A stretch of DNA of 17,115 bases from Escherichia coli (GTDB taxonomy: Bacteria; Pseudomonadota; Gammaproteobacteria; Enterobacterales; Enterobacteriaceae). Below are positions 9,860-17,041 of the stretch, piece by piece (position 1 is the first letter of the stretch; every line of letters starts with the position of its first letter). A model generated the notes under the pieces. That model saw only the letters and a list, made by a program, of their open reading frames with translations. It was not told where the DNA came from and made no database searches. Position numbers and translations under genes: made by a program. The stretch lies in assembly GCF_003334765.1 (NCBI RefSeq), contig NZ_QOWT01000052.1, one strand, 5' to 3'.

Positions 9860-10109
9860 CTACTGCCAGTTGAGATGACGCCCGGCATCCTGATGCTGAC
9901 TTAAAATACGGATAATAATAATATCTGTATCAGTCTGAATAAAATAAAGCATATGCCGTTCAACGGGCAGTGCGAAGATATCTTCCACCAGTTCAGGCCG
10001 GGGAGTGCCGATATTATTATCACTCATAACCTGAAAAATGCCGGCACCCGTAATACCAGATATCCTCCAGATCCTGACTGGCTTTAGGTGTGAGTTTAAC
10101 GGTTTTCAC
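9860..10109 (-). pseudogene. parE: ParE/RelE-family toxin, apparently frameshifted near 10050..10055
   Basis: GTG start overlaps the parD stop; N-terminal frame reads VKTVKLTPKASQDLEDIWYY.. then stop; a second frame reads ..PELVEDIFALPVERHMLYFIQTDTDIIIIRILSQHQDAGRHL, a ParE-like C-terminus. No ORF of 60 aa or more was called here. Confidence 0.5.
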
Positions 10110-10362
10110 CGGAAGCCCTCGTACCAGCCTTAACTTTTTTCAGGAACGCGTCCTTTTCCCACGCCACAGGTTCGCCGCTGCTCAGGCCTTCTGCCAGTAA
10201 ATCCCGCAGGGCCTGGAGACGTGACTCTGCCTGTTTCTCGCGCAGGAGACGAAGTGACTCGCGAATCACTTCACTCTGAGTACGATAATCACCTGATTCT
10301 ATGAGAGATTCAATGAATTCACGGAGTTCATCTCCGAGATCCACTGTCATTGTTCTGGCCAT
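10096..10362 (-). CDS. parD: ParD-family (ribbon-helix-helix) antitoxin
   Basis: 88 aa, MARTMTVDLGDELREFIESLIESGDYRTQSEVIRESLRLLREKQ...; RBS GAGG upstream; operon with the downstream toxin. Confidence 0.75.
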   Translation of the reverse strand: MARTMTVDLGDELREFIESLIESGDYRTQSEVIRESLRLLREKQAESRLQALRDLLAEGLSSGEPVAWEKDAFLKKVKAGTRASGENR

Positions 10363-10376
10363 ATTAAAGCCTCAAT

Positions 10377-10399
10377 ATTGTAAGTTTAAATCTTACAAT
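10377..10399. promoter_or_regulatory. Palindromic putative operator ATTGTAAG-N7-CTTACAAT, 15 bp upstream of the parD start
   Basis: 8-bp inverted arms around an AT-rich spacer, overlapping a candidate -10 on the minus strand. Confidence 0.45.
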
Positions 10400-10439
10400 C
10401 AGTTTATTCGATACTCAAGGGCGAGTCCAGTACTGAACA

Positions 10440-10577
10440 TTTGGGAGAAATGGGGTAATACCCAAGATAGACCAAAAAGGGAAGGGAGAAGTAAAGAAGA
10501 AGGTTCGCTACGTAAATTCTGACTTGGTACAAACCTCTATAAAAAAGAAATTTTTCATGTAACACATTTGGGTACTG
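10440..10577 (+). repeat. Repeat B: about 138-bp diverged copy of repeat A, flanked by direct 9-bp CCCAGTACT (10427..10435 and 10592..10600)
   Basis: Alignable to repeat A over its whole length at roughly three-quarters identity by eye. Confidence 0.5.
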
Positions 10578-10641
10578 CCTCCCAGTAAAGGGAGACAGCA
10601 TCCCAGTACTATAATTGTACTATATAATATAATGTAGGTGA

Positions 10642-12579
10642 TTAAAATAAATTATCTAATCCGAGCAAACTTTCTTTTTCCTTTTTTATCATGTTGAGAT
10701 GATTTAGTGATTTTAAATAAATATAATTATACATATCTTCAACCAAGTTTTCTAATACTAGGAAAACCCTGTTTTTTACACCTGCCTGTGTTAATAATTT
10801 ATCTATAAGCATACTGTTTTTATCGTTTATGATTCCATCAGATTTTATTTTATCGAGGCCTGAAATTATCTTTAAACATGAAGGTGTCGTAATTGCATTG
10901 TCAAAAATAATGTCATGCAAAGAGTATGTTGATAATTTTTCTATATCAGAGAAGGCGAGGACATTCAGAATGTTATCATTAAATGGACCGATTGATACAT
11001 CGTGCATAGATTCAAGTTTATTGTTATTTGATTTTCTATCTTTACGTAGTTCTTTATTTTGAACAATAACTCTCGCATCACCGATTAGTTTATAATAGAA
11101 ATTTTCAGCTAATGTGCTCGCTGAAAAATTCTCTTCTTTAAAACCAATCTCTTGCATTAACGGAATGATTAACTCTTCCGTTGTATTTTCCATGTCTATG
11201 TGGTTTAAAAAAACCGCAGTATTCAGCATAATAGAGTTATTTTTTAGTTCCTTTACCAAACTCAGCAATATCTTACTTTTTATACTAGATGCGCTGTTTT
11301 TAATGAATTCAGCCGCATGATACTCTTGAATTGTTTTATGGACAAATGTAAATATTTCGGCGCCATCTCTTCTGATCAAACCTGTGACATCGATATAGTC
11401 ATTAATAAGATCTTCGGCAAAAGTATCAGAATAATTGAGCCCCAAAACTTTAAATGATTTTTTAGTGATATTTTTTAAGTTATCCCATGATAATTGGGAT
11501 GAACTTTTTAGCGATATGTAACATAAAGCACAAAATATTTCTTTTGATTCACTAATTGAGAGGTTTGTTTTTCTATGCCTTTTATAGAAATTTTTTGTTT
11601 TATCATGGCCTTCAAATAGTATATTAAATATTCTATTGTAAAATTCTCTTGCATTTTTAGGCATTGAATCGAGATGCTTTTCACAAACACAAAGCAGTAC
11701 AGCAAGAATTGGAGTATTAATTGAAGAAAGCAATTGTTTATTTTTCTTAAGCGCTGCTATAAGTTGATCAGCTGACTCCTTTGGTAAAAAATTACCTATT
11801 ATGGAAAAAACATCTTTCTCTGTTAGTGGTTCAACATGATAATTATTTATTCCTGCAGTAGTGCATATTTCTGTTCCAGGCCGAGACGTTGATATTAATT
11901 GAGTCTGAAAAGAATCATTTAAATGCAATATTTCTTTTAAAATAGTTTCTCTAATATCAGGGGATATTTCATCAAAACCATCTAGTAGTAATATAATTTT
12001 TTTACTTTTCAGTAACCCCTTTAGGTCAGCATTAGTGCAGTTTAATTCGAGAGTAGTTAATGTTTTTATTAAACTATCTTGTATTGAATTGTTTTCCAAG
12101 TTTCTAAGATCAAAAAAGAATGGTATTTTATTAATTTTTGAATTATTACTTAAAATAGCTAGGAATATTTTTCTTAAAATTGTTGTTTTCCCTTGTCCAG
12201 CAGCGCCAATTATATTTAATATATTTTCATTTTGAATACAAAAATCATTATTAATTAAAAGGTCTTCATTTGTACGGTTGTTTTTTACCGTGAGTGGATG
12301 ATAAAATTCATCTATAAAAGCATCATCATTTAAATTATATAAAGTTCTTACTGACAAGTATCTTTTAATACATAAATCAAAATAATGAGTGAAAGTATCT
12401 TTCTTCAATATTTGTTCAATAAGTACTTTCGCATTATCAGTTCCATGTTTCCACTTTTGTGAAACTACTGAATTTAACAATTCGTAAGTTGATTTTGTTA
12501 AAGATTCACTAAAAGTTTCTACCATTTTATTGGTGGCCACAATACCCAGTGCAGCAGCAGATATTGTTAACGGTTCCAT
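10642..12579 (-). CDS. NACHT-domain NTPase (bacterial NACHT / STAND family), 645 aa
   Basis: Walker A GAAGQGKTT; NACHT-type Walker B ILLLDGFDE; sensor-1 ISTSRP; RBS AAGGAG 6 nt upstream of the ATG; AT-rich. Confidence 0.85.
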   Translation of the reverse strand: MEPLTISAAALGIVATNKMVETFSESLTKSTYELLNSVVSQKWKHGTDNAKVLIEQILKKDTFTHYFDLCIKRYLSVRTLYNLNDDAFIDEFYHPLTVKNNRTNEDLLINNDFCIQNENILNIIGAAGQGKTTILRKIFLAILSNNSKINKIPFFFDLRNLENNSIQDSLIKTLTTLELNCTNADLKGLLKSKKIILLLDGFDEISPDIRETILKEILHLNDSFQTQLISTSRPGTEICTTAGINNYHVEPLTEKDVFSIIGNFLPKESADQLIAALKKNKQLLSSINTPILAVLLCVCEKHLDSMPKNAREFYNRIFNILFEGHDKTKNFYKRHRKTNLSISESKEIFCALCYISLKSSSQLSWDNLKNITKKSFKVLGLNYSDTFAEDLINDYIDVTGLIRRDGAEIFTFVHKTIQEYHAAEFIKNSASSIKSKILLSLVKELKNNSIMLNTAVFLNHIDMENTTEELIIPLMQEIGFKEENFSASTLAENFYYKLIGDARVIVQNKELRKDRKSNNNKLESMHDVSIGPFNDNILNVLAFSDIEKLSTYSLHDIIFDNAITTPSCLKIISGLDKIKSDGIINDKNSMLIDKLLTQAGVKNRVFLVLENLVEDMYNYIYLKSLNHLNMIKKEKESLLGLDNLF

Positions 12580-12867
12580 TTTTGCTCCTTCAAAAAATTA
12601 TAAAGTGACTGTCTAAATTCATTTAGAATAAAAAGGATAATTACTGATTCTTGATATGGAAGTTATAAAGTGGTTCATATTAAGAAATTCCAAAACCTAA
12701 AGTGTTTGTAACTATATAAAAAATAGATAATAAATCAAGGTTGTTGACATAAAATTTGACACGACGAACTGAAACTCAATGTGGACTAAGGAAAGCACTT
12801 ACCCTATTGTAAAGCATTGATTTAAAATGTTATTTTTTATATTTAACATAATCTTTGTTATGCGCAC

Positions 12868-13570
12868 TAAGGGTGTAACAGCAAAGTTGTAATGTCCGCC
12901 TTGGGCTAAGTTAAGATGTCCGGCGTGTATAATCAAGTAAGGATTACCATGACGGCTCTCGCAGCGGAGTTTTTCACTTTGGATGAAGTTAACCGACTCA
13001 AGATTATTCAGGACGTCATCGACCGGCGTCTGACAACACAGATGGCAGCGCAGCGGCTTGGTATCTCCGACCGCCAGTGCCGTCGTCTGCTTGCGCGTTA
13101 TCGTGAAGATGGTCCGCTTGGCATGACCAGCCGCGTGTCGAAATCACTCACTGTGCAGTACGACAAAGTGCTTTACCTCATTGAAGACAATGAGTTCAGT
13201 CGTCGGGCGATTGGTAAATACATTGATGTCTGGCATTACCCTGACGGACATAAAGAGCTCCGGCTTAATGGCGTATCAATTCCCTACTCCACCTATGACA
13301 AACTGTCTGAAATCGATCAGGGTGCCATTGTGGACAATAAACGTCTTGGGCGTGCGCTGGAGATGGCGCAACTTGTGCAGGCCGAACGGGATAATAACCG
13401 GTCACAATCAGTGCCATCCGGTGACGGCCCTTCACGCAGGCGCAAAGCCCCTACGACGAAGAAATCCCAGCGTTCTTTGGACCAGGACGATATGTTCAAT
13501 GCACTTGTAAAACTTCAGACACGAGCTGAGGAGATTTTTGGTGAACGCAACCAAAAATGATGTTTTGATA
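12868..13570 (+). mobile_element. ISNCY/IS481-like IS remnant with an internally deleted transposase gene
   Basis: Left-end sequence AAGGGTGTA... is shared with the full copy at about 15675; the gene lacks the catalytic core. Confidence 0.5.
12949..13560 (+). pseudogene. Internally deleted DDE transposase derivative: N-terminal HTH fused in frame to the C-terminal domain (about 280 aa of catalytic core missing)
   Basis: Residues ..NRLKIIQDVIDRRL..GPLGM and ..LTVQYDKVLYLIEDNEFSRRAIGKYIDVWHYPDGHKELRLNG.. align to both ends of the 415-aa transposase at 15794..17041. Extended -10 TGTATAAT and RBS AAGGA precede the ATG at 12949. Confidence 0.6.
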
Positions 13571-13611
13571 CGAACATTTCAATGGTCAATAGATAGAGTG
13601 GAGATGGGCAG

Positions 13612-14658
13612 ATGATAACGTTTTCTATGGATGAAAGTGGCTATACGGGTTATGACTTACTCCACAAAGAGCAAAAATTCCAAGGCGCGTCATCAATATT
13701 AATAAACCATGATGACGCCAGTCGTCTGATAAAAGAATATTTCCCCAAACTTCAAGCCGATGAATTGAAGTACAGCTCGCTGAAAAGAAGAGATTCCAAC
13801 CGCAAGCCATTATTTGAATTGCAAAAGCATCTCTTATCTAATTACCCATGTATAACATGCGTAGGTGATAAACGCTTTTTACTAATTCTTATGTTCATCG
13901 ATTATGCTGTTGAACCATTCTATTATGATTTTGGGATTAATCTTTATGAGGATGGCGGTAACTTCTCAATGGCATCAATGGTGTATTACGTTGGACCAGC
14001 GTATTATGGCTCTGCCTTTGATGATGTTCTGCTTCAGTTTCAAAATGCTATGAAAGAAAAAACATTAGATTCAGTGAGTTTGCTAATAAGCAAAATAAGG
14101 AGGCTTGACTGGCAAAGGTTAAAAGAGTTTTTTGGTCCTTTGGCATTTAACCACCCAGATTGTATTGATGCCATCATGACTGATGGAATTAGCACTGATG
14201 CCTCATTTACTATTTTAAATGCATTAATTTCTCGCACGGAAATGATGTCCTCTGGAGAGTATGCAATTGAGCATGATCGTTCTAAAAATCTGCTAACTTA
14301 CAATGAACGCCTTAACTTTTTGATCAATTGTGATAAGGAAGGAGAGTTTAAACATTCCGAGATAGCAACTATCTCATTCCCACTAAACCTTAAAAAAGTC
14401 TATCAAATTGATTCGAAAGAAAGCCCAAGCGTGCAATTGTGTGATGTTCTTATAGGTGCATGTATTGAATCAGTTTATCAATTAATGGACTCTAAGGTAC
14501 TCAATCAAAATTCCGTTCTTTCACTTTACCAAGATAGCCAGTTAATACATTTCATACCTGATATAGATTTTGAAGGACAGAAAAAATTTAGGAAAGGCAG
14601 TCAAAGTGAGGAGTATCTTACGTTTATTCAAAATGAAATCTACTCTAGTAAACTTTAA
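13612..14658 (+). CDS. DUF3800-like protein (uncharacterised), 348 aa
   Basis: N-terminal FSMDESGYTG (DESG motif) and C-terminal VQLCDVLIGA (QxxD-like motif), as recalled for DUF3800; RBS GGAG; AT-rich. Confidence 0.6.
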   Translation: MITFSMDESGYTGYDLLHKEQKFQGASSILINHDDASRLIKEYFPKLQADELKYSSLKRRDSNRKPLFELQKHLLSNYPCITCVGDKRFLLILMFIDYAVEPFYYDFGINLYEDGGNFSMASMVYYVGPAYYGSAFDDVLLQFQNAMKEKTLDSVSLLISKIRRLDWQRLKEFFGPLAFNHPDCIDAIMTDGISTDASFTILNALISRTEMMSSGEYAIEHDRSKNLLTYNERLNFLINCDKEGEFKHSEIATISFPLNLKKVYQIDSKESPSVQLCDVLIGACIESVYQLMDSKVLNQNSVLSLYQDSQLIHFIPDIDFEGQKKFRKGSQSEEYLTFIQNEIYSSKL

Positions 14659-14663
14659 AAAAA

Positions 14664-14684
14664 GGCTCTGAAAATCAGAACCTT
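14664..14684. terminator. Imperfect hairpin between the convergent genes (possible bidirectional terminator)
   Basis: GGCTCTGA-AAA-TCAGAACC stem with one mismatch, A-run upstream. Confidence 0.3.
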
Positions 14685-14893
14685 ATCGCACCACCAGACA
14701 TAGAAATGATTCGTGAAGCTATTTTATACAGAACCAAAAACACAAAGGCCAAAACAGTCATGATATCTAATACCATAGGCATTACCTCCACTAACGTATT
14801 CAAGACAAACGCTTTATACCCGCATCAGTCCGTAGACAGGCATCTGTTCGTCAGTTTGTGGATTTCTATGGGTGGTGAGACCGGGTAGAGACA

Positions 14894-15538
14894 TCATACC
14901 TGTTTTCTTAGAAGCTGGTCAATATAGCTGATCGTGTGAAATTCACGTTCGATTTTCATACAAACATTTGGCAACTGTTCGATAAGAAAGTTTTCATCGA
15001 AGCGATCTAGAAGGTACGTGAGGGTAATAGTATCAATTTTATTCAATTTTCTATGTAAAACTGAAGAACGCCTCACAAAATCGTTTTTCCTTAACTCTTG
15101 AATAACATCGATCAAAATAGGGTTGAATAATTCTTTTTCTGGAAAGGACTTGTAAATTTTCGAATCAATAATTTGAGAAGGATCTAAGCGGTTAATTAAA
15201 TTATTACTGCTAACTATGTAGCACTTATCAATCATCAAACCTTCCGTTTTGCAACGGTCTAAATCACAAGCGTTTATTATACATTCTTTAAATACAACAT
15301 GTCGCAGGCTCCCGCCTCTAAAAAGGACTCCTCTTAATAAAGAGGATTGGAAAAGACTGCCAGTAAAGTTACACCATTTCAATGAAGCACCAATAAAAGA
15401 CGTGTTCGTGAATTTTGACTGAAAAAAATTTGAATGGTAACTGTGTGTCTTATTGAAATTTTTATTTATAAAATTCCTACTCGCAACATCACGATTATTG
15501 TAGCTGAAAGCATTTTTGCTCTTCTTATTCCTTGCCAT
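14894..15538 (-). CDS. Pentapeptide-repeat protein: N-terminal pentapeptide-repeat region plus a C-terminal domain of unknown function, 214 aa
   Basis: Residues about 20..95 show a 5-residue periodicity (RNFIN KNFNK .. SNFFQ SKFTN TSFIG ASLKW CNFTG SLFQS SLLRG VLFRG GSLRH VVFKE) with F/L at the centre position. Confidence 0.6.
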   Translation of the reverse strand: MARNKKSKNAFSYNNRDVASRNFINKNFNKTHSYHSNFFQSKFTNTSFIGASLKWCNFTGSLFQSSLLRGVLFRGGSLRHVVFKECIINACDLDRCKTEGLMIDKCYIVSSNNLINRLDPSQIIDSKIYKSFPEKELFNPILIDVIQELRKNDFVRRSSVLHRKLNKIDTITLTYLLDRFDENFLIEQLPNVCMKIEREFHTISYIDQLLRKQV

Positions 15539-15674
15539 ATTTATATCTCAGACTTTATAAGTCTAATGATATTCCCACGAATTGCTTTCCCTGTGAAGTT
15601 TTTGTTGACCAAGCAAAGCAGTTTATGGACATTTGAACTTTGCCCTACCCCGGACATCTGAACTTAGCTTTGAC

Positions 15675-17038
15675 AAAGGGTGTAGAGGCTCAATGCTAAT
15701 GTCTATTTGTGGCTCATTGGAATGTCCAGGCTATAGTTTCTCAGATCCCTATGTCTAGACAACGACTCACTTTTTCCTGATGAGGAGTTTTCTATGGCTA
15801 TAAATGACGCCGGAATGTTCACCGTGAAAGAAATCAATCGCCTCAAAATCCTTCAGGATGTCATCGATCGCAATATCCGTCCTGGACAGGCTGCCGAAAT
15901 GCTGGTCATCACGCCACGTCATTGCAGCCGTCTGCTCAAACGTTATCGCCAGTATGGGCCGCTTGGCATGAACAACCAGAGTCGTGGCCGCACTGGTAAC
16001 CGTCTGTTGCCAGCGTCACTGACAGATCAGGCACTCAGTATAATCCGGGAGCACTACCGTGATTTTGGCCCCACGCTAGCGCGGGAAAAGCTGGAGGAAG
16101 TTCACGGTCTGGTCCTTGGAAAGGAAACCATCCGACGTCTCATGATAAAGGCCGGACTCTGGATTCCCCGCAGACAACGCGCACCGAAAATTCATCAGCC
16201 TCGTTACCGGCGTCCTTGTACTGGCGAGCTGATACAAATTGATGGCTGCGACCACCACTGGTTTGAAAACCGGGGTCGACCCTGTACTGCCCTGGTCTAT
16301 GTTGACGATGCCACCAGTCGCCTGATGCACCTGCTGTTTGTGAAATCTGAGTCCACATTTACCTATTTTGAAGCTACACGTGGCTATATCGAGAAATACG
16401 GTAAACCGATGATCCTCTACAGCGATAAAGCCAGCATATTCAGAGTCAATAATAAGCACGCCACCACCGGCCCCGGCGAAACCCAGTTTGCCAGGGCCAT
16501 GCGCTGCCTTAATATTACTCCTTTGTGTGCTGAAACCAGCCAGGCAAAAGGCCGCGTTGAACGTGCTCATTTGACACTTCAGGACCGACTCGTTAAGGAG
16601 CTCAGGCTTAAGGGGATCTGTACAATAGAAGCGGCCAATGCATTTGCAGAAGAATACATGGCGGATTATAACCGTCGCTTTGCCAAAGAACCCTTGCATG
16701 ATTTTAACGCGCACCGGCCGCTGGCATTAGACGATGACCTTGATGCAGAATTTACCTGGCGAGAGCCTCGCCGGGTATCAAAAAATCTGACTGTACAATA
16801 CGATAAAATGCTCTATCTGATTGAGGACAACGAGTACAGTCGAAGAGCCATCGGCAAGTATATTGATGTCTGGCATTATCCTGACGGACATAAGGAGCTG
16901 CGACTAAATGGCGTGCTGCTGCCCTACTCCACCTATGACCGGCTTTCTGAGGTTGATCCCGTCGCCATTGTAGATAACAAGAGACTTGGCCATGTGTTGG
17001 ATGTTGCCCGTCAGGTCCAGAGAAAACGGGACAATAAT
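15675..17038 (+). mobile_element. ISNCY/IS481-like insertion sequence, 3'-truncated by insertion of the terminal-repeat element
   Basis: Left-end homology with the 12868 copy; the transposase reading frame is cut at 17038/17039. Confidence 0.6.
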
Positions 17039-17041
17039 TGA
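15794..17041 (+). CDS. DDE transposase (integrase-core type, ISNCY/IS481-like), 415 aa, C-terminally truncated by about 45 aa relative to the homolog at 12949..13560
   Basis: N-terminal HTH, central core (..QIDGCDHHWF..YVDDATSRLM..) and C-terminal DVWHYPDGHKELRLNG; RBS GAGGAG. The stop codon TGA is supplied by the first bases of the 77-bp repeat. Confidence 0.8.
   Translation: MAINDAGMFTVKEINRLKILQDVIDRNIRPGQAAEMLVITPRHCSRLLKRYRQYGPLGMNNQSRGRTGNRLLPASLTDQALSIIREHYRDFGPTLAREKLEEVHGLVLGKETIRRLMIKAGLWIPRRQRAPKIHQPRYRRPCTGELIQIDGCDHHWFENRGRPCTALVYVDDATSRLMHLLFVKSESTFTYFEATRGYIEKYGKPMILYSDKASIFRVNNKHATTGPGETQFARAMRCLNITPLCAETSQAKGRVERAHLTLQDRLVKELRLKGICTIEAANAFAEEYMADYNRRFAKEPLHDFNAHRPLALDDDLDAEFTWREPRRVSKNLTVQYDKMLYLIEDNEYSRRAIGKYIDVWHYPDGHKELRLNGVLLPYSTYDRLSEVDPVAIVDNKRLGHVLDVARQVQRKRDNN

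Follow-up and report, generated by a model that had tools for sequence, protein, structure and literature searches.

The locus and its identity with bNACHT23

The window analysed here, a stretch of 17,115 nucleotides from Escherichia coli (contig NZ_QOWT01000052.1), carries an intact open reading frame of 645 amino acids at positions 10642..12579. According to the list of open reading frames and their translation, its ATG is the first start after the upstream stop. The first-pass annotation had described this frame as a NACHT NTPase whose N-terminal region is short and as a candidate antiphage STAND protein. The frame is real and complete, but it lies on the minus strand, which had to be corrected. 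A scan for promoters and terminators around the gene returned a count not above that of shuffled sequence.

The encoded protein is identical (645 of 645 residues) to WP_000433597.1, an annotated coding sequence on plasmid NZ_CP024244.1. Table S1 of Kibby et al. [quoted passage not shown] The corresponding clone, pLOCO2-bNACHT23, contains a 2586-nt region with the native promoter and a one-gene operon for a 645-aa protein (Kibby et al., doi 10.1101/2022.07.19.500537). In supplementary Table S2 of the preprint, its defence, in the sense of lower plating of the phages on E. coli, is listed as 'T2, T5, T6'; the panel comprised T2-T7, lambda-vir, M13, MS2 and Qbeta, with the genes under their native promoters (Kibby et al., doi 10.1101/2022.07.19.500537). 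The 399 residues printed in Table S2 coincide exactly with residues 1-399 of the window protein. At the nucleotide level, the cloned region agrees with the window without a mismatch over its first 399 nt, from position 12948 downwards. This comparable stretch covers early coding sequence and the 369 nt upstream of the window frame, with which the functional clone begins.

The window gene is bNACHT23, which has already been cloned and reported as antiphage, and is not new. The proposal of an antiphage protein is thereby borne out but, because the two proteins are identical, the gene no longer counts as an uncharacterised candidate. Robbins et al. (doi 10.1101/2024.12.17.629029) likewise include bNACHT23 to represent clade 14 where they align SNaCT domains and N-termini. 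The features of the locus are as follows.

10363..12948 (-): counterpart of the cloned 2586-nt region; 399 nt were matched, and position 10363 is an extrapolation based on the length given by Kibby et al.
12585..12591 (-): strong Shine-Dalgarno sequence GAAGGAG, read from the sequence, 5 nt 5' of the ATG
10642..12579 (-): bNACHT23 coding sequence (645 aa plus stop codon), 645/645 identity with WP_000433597.1
12403..12579 (-): N-terminal effector extension, residues 1 to ~59, with MEPLT (1-5), the uncharged run P3-N17 and then helices
Residues 6-19 of this extension: segment after MEPLT, ISAAALGIVATNKM
11293..12255 (-): NACHT module (nucleotide-binding, helical and winged-helix parts), residues 109-429, boundaries of Kibby et al.
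12181..12207 (-): Walker A, GAAGQGKTT, residues 125-133
11968..11991 (-): Walker B, LLLDGFDE, residues 197-204
11881..11889 (-): sensor-1, TSR, residues 231-233
10657..11199 (-): SNaCT sensor domain, residues 461-641, boundaries of Kibby et al.
10981..10995 (-): S529-I530-G-P-F533, end of the second hairpin strand, counterpart of bNACHT11 S518/I519/F522
10645..10665 (-): C-terminal tail LGLDNLF, residues 639-645, counterpart of the bNACHT11 tail 633-639

A small unannotated open reading frame (10404..10601, minus strand) lies downstream of the bNACHT23 gene and inside the cloned region; RefSeq holds no annotation for it, and no sign of its conservation was seen.

Domain architecture and family placement

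The canonical motifs noted at first reading are all present in the protein. In the family alignment (A1), Walker A residues G125, A127, G128, G130 and T133 are invariant and K131 is nearly so. Also invariant in this alignment are D200, G201, D203 and E204 of Walker B, the sensor-1 arginine R233 and the winged-helix histidines H414 and H421. Profile searches, a check proposed in the first-pass annotation, support the NACHT fold. The Pfam NACHT model (PF05729) matches residues 123-265 with an i-E of 1.8e-13, and the NB-ARC and nSTAND models of Pfam match the same stretch more weakly. The top phmmer match among PDB sequences is NLRC4 (9e-9), in a library that does not hold the bNACHT11 structure 9ORF. 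An AlphaFold2 (AF2) model of the 645-aa protein (mean pLDDT 82.8, pTM 0.73) matches NLRC4, NOD2 and NLRP3 in Foldseek with E-values of 3e-12 to 1e-10, likewise against a structure library without 9ORF. The NACHT assignment is far above chance.

When the whole protein was scanned with Pfam, NCBIfam and PADLOC, matches were confined to the NACHT/P-loop core, with none in residues 1-110 or 431-645. None of the Avs models of PADLOC matched; PDC-S60 did so on the NACHT core (1e-14), and mad8, mad3 and PtuA gave weak P-loop matches. Membership of PDC-S60 was rejected, as its match reflects likeness in the NACHT core only. The same holds for EruA, whose NCBIfam model reached 34.6 bits where the cut-off is 1000. 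The gene could also have been a remnant of a larger disrupted frame, a caveat raised at first reading. It is not a fragment, since hundreds of relatives of similar length (580-650 aa) align with it end to end, initial residues and C-terminal tail included.

Placement against the published bNACHT families yields clade 14 (Kibby et al. Table S1). By blastp, similarity to the tested clade-14 members spans the first ~415 residues of the window protein. Over the first 400 residues, identity amounts to 37% with bNACHT11 (8e-96), 37% with bNACHT02 (4e-90), 38% with bNACHT01 (8e-81) and 38% with bNACHT12 (3e-79), against 25-28% with bNACHT04 and bNACHT22. bNACHT23 bears the marks of the clade: it is a listed member with NACHT motifs, a short N-terminal extension that has an M-[DE]-P-[IL]-[TS] start and lacks a recognisable enzymatic domain, a SNaCT-type C-terminus and a stand-alone gene. 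At the C-terminus, it is a short SNaCT domain that takes the place of repeats or of an FGS domain. Across the family, the NACHT core is conserved whereas residues 1-59 and 481-645 change fastest; compared with the relative P0002, for instance, identity is 90% in HD1-WHD, 64% in the N-terminus and 65% in the C-terminus. Fast divergence at both ends is compatible with diversifying pressure on sensor and effector, of the kind seen in an arms race. Given how far these ends have diverged in sequence, the activators of bNACHT23 would almost certainly be other than those of bNACHT11.

The first-pass annotation had left about 300 C-terminal residues unassigned and considered effector and sensor domains beyond assignment from sequence. 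The former figure was too high, as residues ~253-430 still form the helical and winged-helix subdomains of the NACHT module (alignment A1, AF2 model), but a separate domain does follow at ~431/461-645. Both ends can now be assigned, to a C-terminal SNaCT sensor and a MEPLT-type N-terminal effector extension. The C-terminus is a SNaCT sensor domain and is modelled as a compact helical domain with a beta-hairpin, ~200 aa in size and devoid of repeats (AF2 domain model, pLDDT 87.4). A profile of the C-termini of the bNACHT23 subclade aligns with bNACHT11-like C-termini in hhalign with a probability of 95% (E 4e-8), and weakly with bNACHT01-like C-termini (66%). No Pfam SNaCT model (e.g., SNaCT1 PF22710, SNaCT8 PF22714) matches the protein, even at E <= 10; such models do match P0036 and P0042, which are more distantly related. 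A precomputed SNaCT match is likewise absent from P0021 (bNACHT01-like) and P0013 (bNACHT11-like), so the Pfam SNaCT models do not cover the founding members. A search of PDB sequences with the C-terminal-domain profile gave no match at E <= 10 and hence no solved relative, in libraries without 9ORF.

To transfer functional residues of bNACHT11, we mapped them through the relative P0013, which is 83% identical to bNACHT11. Residues S518/I519/F522 correspond to S529/I530/F533 of bNACHT23, and I549/I553 to F559/I563. In the AF2 models, the beta-hairpin ends in SIGPF, the counterpart of the activator-binding strand of bNACHT11; G531 and P532 are invariant and F533 is nearly so (alignment A2). Changes at S518/I519/F522 and at I549/I553 are reported to weaken bNACHT11 (Robbins et al., doi 10.1101/2024.12.17.629029). 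Hydrophobic or aromatic tails line up across the family in alignment A1, with LGLDNLF in bNACHT23 and KEILGF in P0013. The tail of bNACHT11 (633-639), which that protein requires, docks into the neighbouring protomer, and a tail deletion has been reported (Robbins et al., doi 10.1101/2024.12.17.629029). By analogy, LGLDNLF would function in the same way.

At the other end, the protein starts with MEPLT, a motif of the MDPIT/MEPIS type. We placed the end of this extension at residue ~59 by adding an insertion of ~14 residues to the 45 residues of bNACHT11. In bNACHT11, D2 and P3 of the MDPIT start are essential (Robbins et al., doi 10.1101/2024.12.17.629029). MEPIS-type motifs have been reported in Bab, Bell and Hell domains, in Avast2 and in bNACHT02, bNACHT11 and bNACHT23 (Ibarlosa et al., doi 10.1101/2024.11.07.622273), and bNACHT23 is part of the published alignment of this motif (Robbins et al., doi 10.1101/2024.12.17.629029; Ibarlosa et al., doi 10.1101/2024.11.07.622273). 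AF2 confidence falls below 50 for residues 1-19, as could be expected, since the structure of bNACHT11 does not resolve the counterpart segment (Robbins et al., doi 10.1101/2024.12.17.629029).

The ~14-residue insertion follows the motif in bNACHT23 and its close subclade (P0002-P0012), as compared with bNACHT01-, bNACHT02-, bNACHT11- and bNACHT12-like proteins (alignment A1). It creates a run of 15 uncharged residues rich in Gly, Ala and Ile, P3-N17 (PLTISAAALGIVATN), the counterpart of which in bNACHT11 counts four residues. The maximum Kyte-Doolittle hydropathy of the N-terminus over 19 residues is 1.05. The usual cut-off for a transmembrane helix on this scale is ~1.6 over 19 residues, so the uncharged segment falls short of a classical transmembrane helix. 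An insertion unique to bNACHT23 was considered and rejected: uncharged helices of this kind at the N-terminus are common in distant family members, which makes it a family variant. The segment would have been lost or made charged in bNACHT01, bNACHT02, bNACHT11 and bNACHT12.

Plasmid setting and distribution

The gene has a G+C content of ~29-30%, against ~50-55% in the surrounding plasmid backbone. It belongs to an accessory patch of low G+C content (~10460-15700), which it shares with an ISNCY fragment, a DUF3800 gene and a pentapeptide-repeat gene. On its far side, the patch is bordered by another ISNCY copy, and on its near side by ParD, a tyrosine recombinase and RepB. In plasmids that do not carry the bNACHT23 gene, similarity to the window ends at ~10460. 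Compared with the description by Kibby et al., in which protein, comparable nucleotides and single-gene NACHT and SNaCT composition are the same, the window adds this plasmid context: an IncF-type plasmid, with RepB, the recombinase and ParD beside the gene. The relatives P0003 and P0009 occupy a comparable place on IncF plasmids, between traI or a recombinase on the one hand and a toxin-antitoxin pair and repA on the other. No conserved partner gene was found, as the neighbours differ between the window and the loci of the relatives (L002-L005).

The window is 100% identical to the E. coli plasmids NZ_JBQGLE010000005.1 and NZ_OZ547039.1. The copy on NZ_OZ547039.1 carries Q598L and, because of this substitution, has an accession of its own (WP_021562738.1); a literature search by that accession gave no match. 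NZ_CP024244.1 is a conjugative IncFIA/IncFIB plasmid of E. coli O128:H27. The exact bNACHT23 protein occurs on 628 contigs and the full gene in 13 of 5426 complete E. coli genomes, while the family as a whole is present on 182 plasmids in PLSDB, mostly conjugative plasmids of Klebsiella and Escherichia.

Proposed mode of action and its alternatives

The closest described model is bNACHT11 of Klebsiella pneumoniae (WP_114260439.1, structure 9ORF), which shares clade 14 and the three-part layout with bNACHT23, with 37% identity over residues 1-415. Common to both are the SIGPF strand, the C-terminal tail, the M-[DE]-P-[IL]-T start and the pair K115/R214, which equals K131/R233 in bNACHT23 (the offset between R214 and R233 was worked out from alignment A1). 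K115 is reported to be necessary in bNACHT01 and bNACHT11, and R214 contacts ATP in bNACHT11 (Robbins et al., doi 10.1101/2024.12.17.629029). The two proteins differ most at their ends. The last 165 residues share only ~18% identity, and after the motif bNACHT23 is longer by 14 residues, with a 15-residue uncharged run that is absent from bNACHT11. The phage spectra differ as well (T2, T5 and T6 for bNACHT23; T2, T4 and T6 for bNACHT11). The likeness of the bNACHT11 fold to NLRC4 and NOD2, as reported by Robbins et al., agrees with the Foldseek matches of bNACHT23.

Mammalian NLRC4, NOD2 and NLRP3 have the same NACHT fold and are likewise switches that oligomerise in an ATP-dependent manner, with the effector at the N-terminus and the sensor at the C-terminus. 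Sequence identity is only 13-18%, and bNACHT23 lacks LRR, CARD and PYD domains; it has a SNaCT sensor of ~200 aa and a peptide effector of ~50 aa. The Bell/Hell/HeLo and Bab domains share the N-terminal MEPIS-type motif, followed by a hydrophobic helix of small residues, and are likewise tied to cell death in which membranes are altered (Ibarlosa et al., doi 10.1101/2024.11.07.622273). The comparable part is limited to the first ~15-20 residues, with no Pfam or other profile match that would indicate domain-level homology. In bNACHT23, the motif sits directly on the NLR-related protein, whereas in Bell/Hell/HeLo/Bab it belongs to a separate helical-bundle protein.

bNACHT23 is very probably a single-gene, plasmid-borne, NLR-related abortive-infection protein, composed of a clade-14 NACHT module and a SNaCT domain, that works by a bNACHT11-like mechanism. 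For bNACHT23 itself, the defence phenotype has been reported; every mechanistic step beyond it is carried over from bNACHT11, at 37% identity. bNACHT11 forms an ATP-dependent heptamer that is stabilised by docking of the C-terminal tail, and its activation leads to plasmolysis (Robbins et al., doi 10.1101/2024.12.17.629029). By analogy, the SNaCT domain of bNACHT23 would bind at least one phage protein through beta-augmentation on the exposed strand S529-I530-G-P-F533, together with nearby hydrophobic residues. Binding of the activator would free the ATP-bound NACHT module (K131, D200/D203/E204, R233) to assemble into a wheel-like oligomer, and tail docking would presumably aid this ATP-dependent assembly. 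The oligomer would then cluster the short N-terminal extensions (MEPLT and the uncharged helix) at the inner membrane. Loss of osmotic control, plasmolysis and cell death could follow before the phage cycle ends, i.e., abortive infection. How clade-14 N-termini act on the membrane was left open by Robbins et al. (doi 10.1101/2024.12.17.629029), as the N-terminus of bNACHT11 is not hydrophobic. It is conceivable, albeit doubtful, that the uncharged segment P3-N17 is a membrane-inserting, pore-lining element such as in Bell/HeLo domains.

Sensing may also proceed differently, if bNACHT23 guards a host factor that is perturbed by the phage, as bNACHT25 does with DnaJ, instead of binding a phage protein directly. 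Indirect sensing exists among bacterial NACHT proteins, as stated in published abstracts, and such a role would be compatible with a SNaCT domain that is highly divergent from that of bNACHT11 and for which the literature searched reports no activator. Nevertheless, we consider it unlikely: bNACHT25 belongs to another clade (6) and has another C-terminal domain (REase+NACHT+NCH1), whereas bNACHT23 has kept the S-I-G-P-F strand with which bNACHT11 binds its activator. The genomic setting raises a different question, namely whether the main role of the protein is to benefit the plasmid, by shielding pilus-bearing hosts from plasmid-dependent phages, by acting on rival mobile elements or by helping to maintain the plasmid. 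Conjugative IncF plasmids do carry the gene and its near relatives, with genes for replication, recombinases and toxin-antitoxin pairs beside them. In Klebsiella and Escherichia, the family is frequent on plasmids, most of them conjugative, and the clade-14 relatives bNACHT02 and bNACHT12 are reported to defend against the F-pilus phage MS2. However, bNACHT23 is recorded against T2, T5 and T6 and not against MS2 or Qbeta, both of which were in the panel. Nothing ties its function to the adjacent toxin-antitoxin genes and its neighbours are not conserved among relatives, which renders a primarily plasmid-serving role very improbable.

There is hardly any room left for the reading that the window copy has lost its activity and is decaying in a part of the plasmid riddled with insertion sequences. 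Broken genes do surround it (a SIR2-STAND gene and ParE, both frameshifted, and fragments of ISNCY, IS21 and IS3). Yet the frame is full length, its product is identical to the tested protein and found unchanged on 628 contigs, all catalytic motifs are intact and the 369 nt upstream equal the start of the functional clone, by which this reading is already largely refuted. A bNACHT11-like abortive-infection mechanism is the reading that we retain for bNACHT23.

For genome scans, the right annotation of this gene is bNACHT23, an experimentally tested antiphage protein related to NLRs, and not a fresh candidate. Its place on IncF-type plasmids, beside replication and maintenance genes, shows that conjugative plasmids of pathogenic E. 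coli carry this defence gene along. The functional residues of bNACHT11, as mapped here onto bNACHT23, provide ready-made mutants. With its longer uncharged N-terminus, bNACHT23 may suit studies of the effector step better than bNACHT11 and, if the segment P3-N17 were indeed pore-lining, the protein would show how clustered clade-14 N-termini damage the membrane.

Polymorphism and short reading frames beside bNACHT23

Codon 598 of the NACHT gene bNACHT23 (window 10786..10788) reads differently on the otherwise identical E. coli plasmid NZ_OZ547039.1. The resulting Q598L exchange, which separates WP_021562738.1 of that plasmid from WP_000433597.1, is a single-residue polymorphism within the C-terminal SNaCT sensor domain. 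Two short reading frames lie downstream:

10404..10601 (-), unannotated 65-aa ORF, past the NACHT stop codon and ahead of parD
10096..10362 (-), intact ParD antitoxin gene, within ~9860..10362 (-)

The ORF falls inside the region cloned as bNACHT23 and encodes a hydrophobic, aromatic-rich product; the RefSeq records examined leave it unannotated, and it is probably spurious. The ParD antitoxin may be orphaned, since the matching RefSeq record marks the adjoining RelE/ParE toxin as frameshifted and no intact ORF of at least 60 aa occupies the toxin position in the window.

Other accessory and defence-type genes

The low-GC patch holding bNACHT23 also comprises two genes flanked by ISNCY elements:

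12916..13560, ISNCY transposase fragment
13612..14658 (+), DUF3800 protein gene
14894..15538 (-), pentapeptide-repeat protein gene
15794..17041, near-full ISNCY copy

Neither the DUF3800 nor the pentapeptide-repeat protein convincingly matched defence-family profiles, the sole match being a weak one of the former to PDC-M04A. Elsewhere in the window, a defence-type gene is disrupted, as seen by comparison with plasmid NZ_AP028871.1:

575..3019 (+), SIR2-STAND gene (SIR2 + nSTAND3)

In NZ_AP028871.1, the same 2445 nt form a single 814-aa CDS ('SIR2 family protein'). In the window, the frame shifts between about 2018 and 2255, so that the ORF ends after 482 aa and stop codons follow, and the annotation of NZ_OZ547039.1 splits the region into three CDS. 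This disruption may reflect either real decay or an assembly indel.

Location of relatives on IncF plasmids

Close relatives with 50-63% identity to bNACHT23 occur at four loci on IncF conjugative plasmids:

L002, 6001-7932
L003 and L004, 6001-7941
L005, 608-2548

All occupy a similar site, directly past traI, a DsbA-like gene and a tyrosine recombinase, with a toxin-antitoxin pair and IncFII repA on the other side. This shared site suggests that bNACHT23-type defence genes have a recurrent insertion spot on IncF conjugative plasmids.
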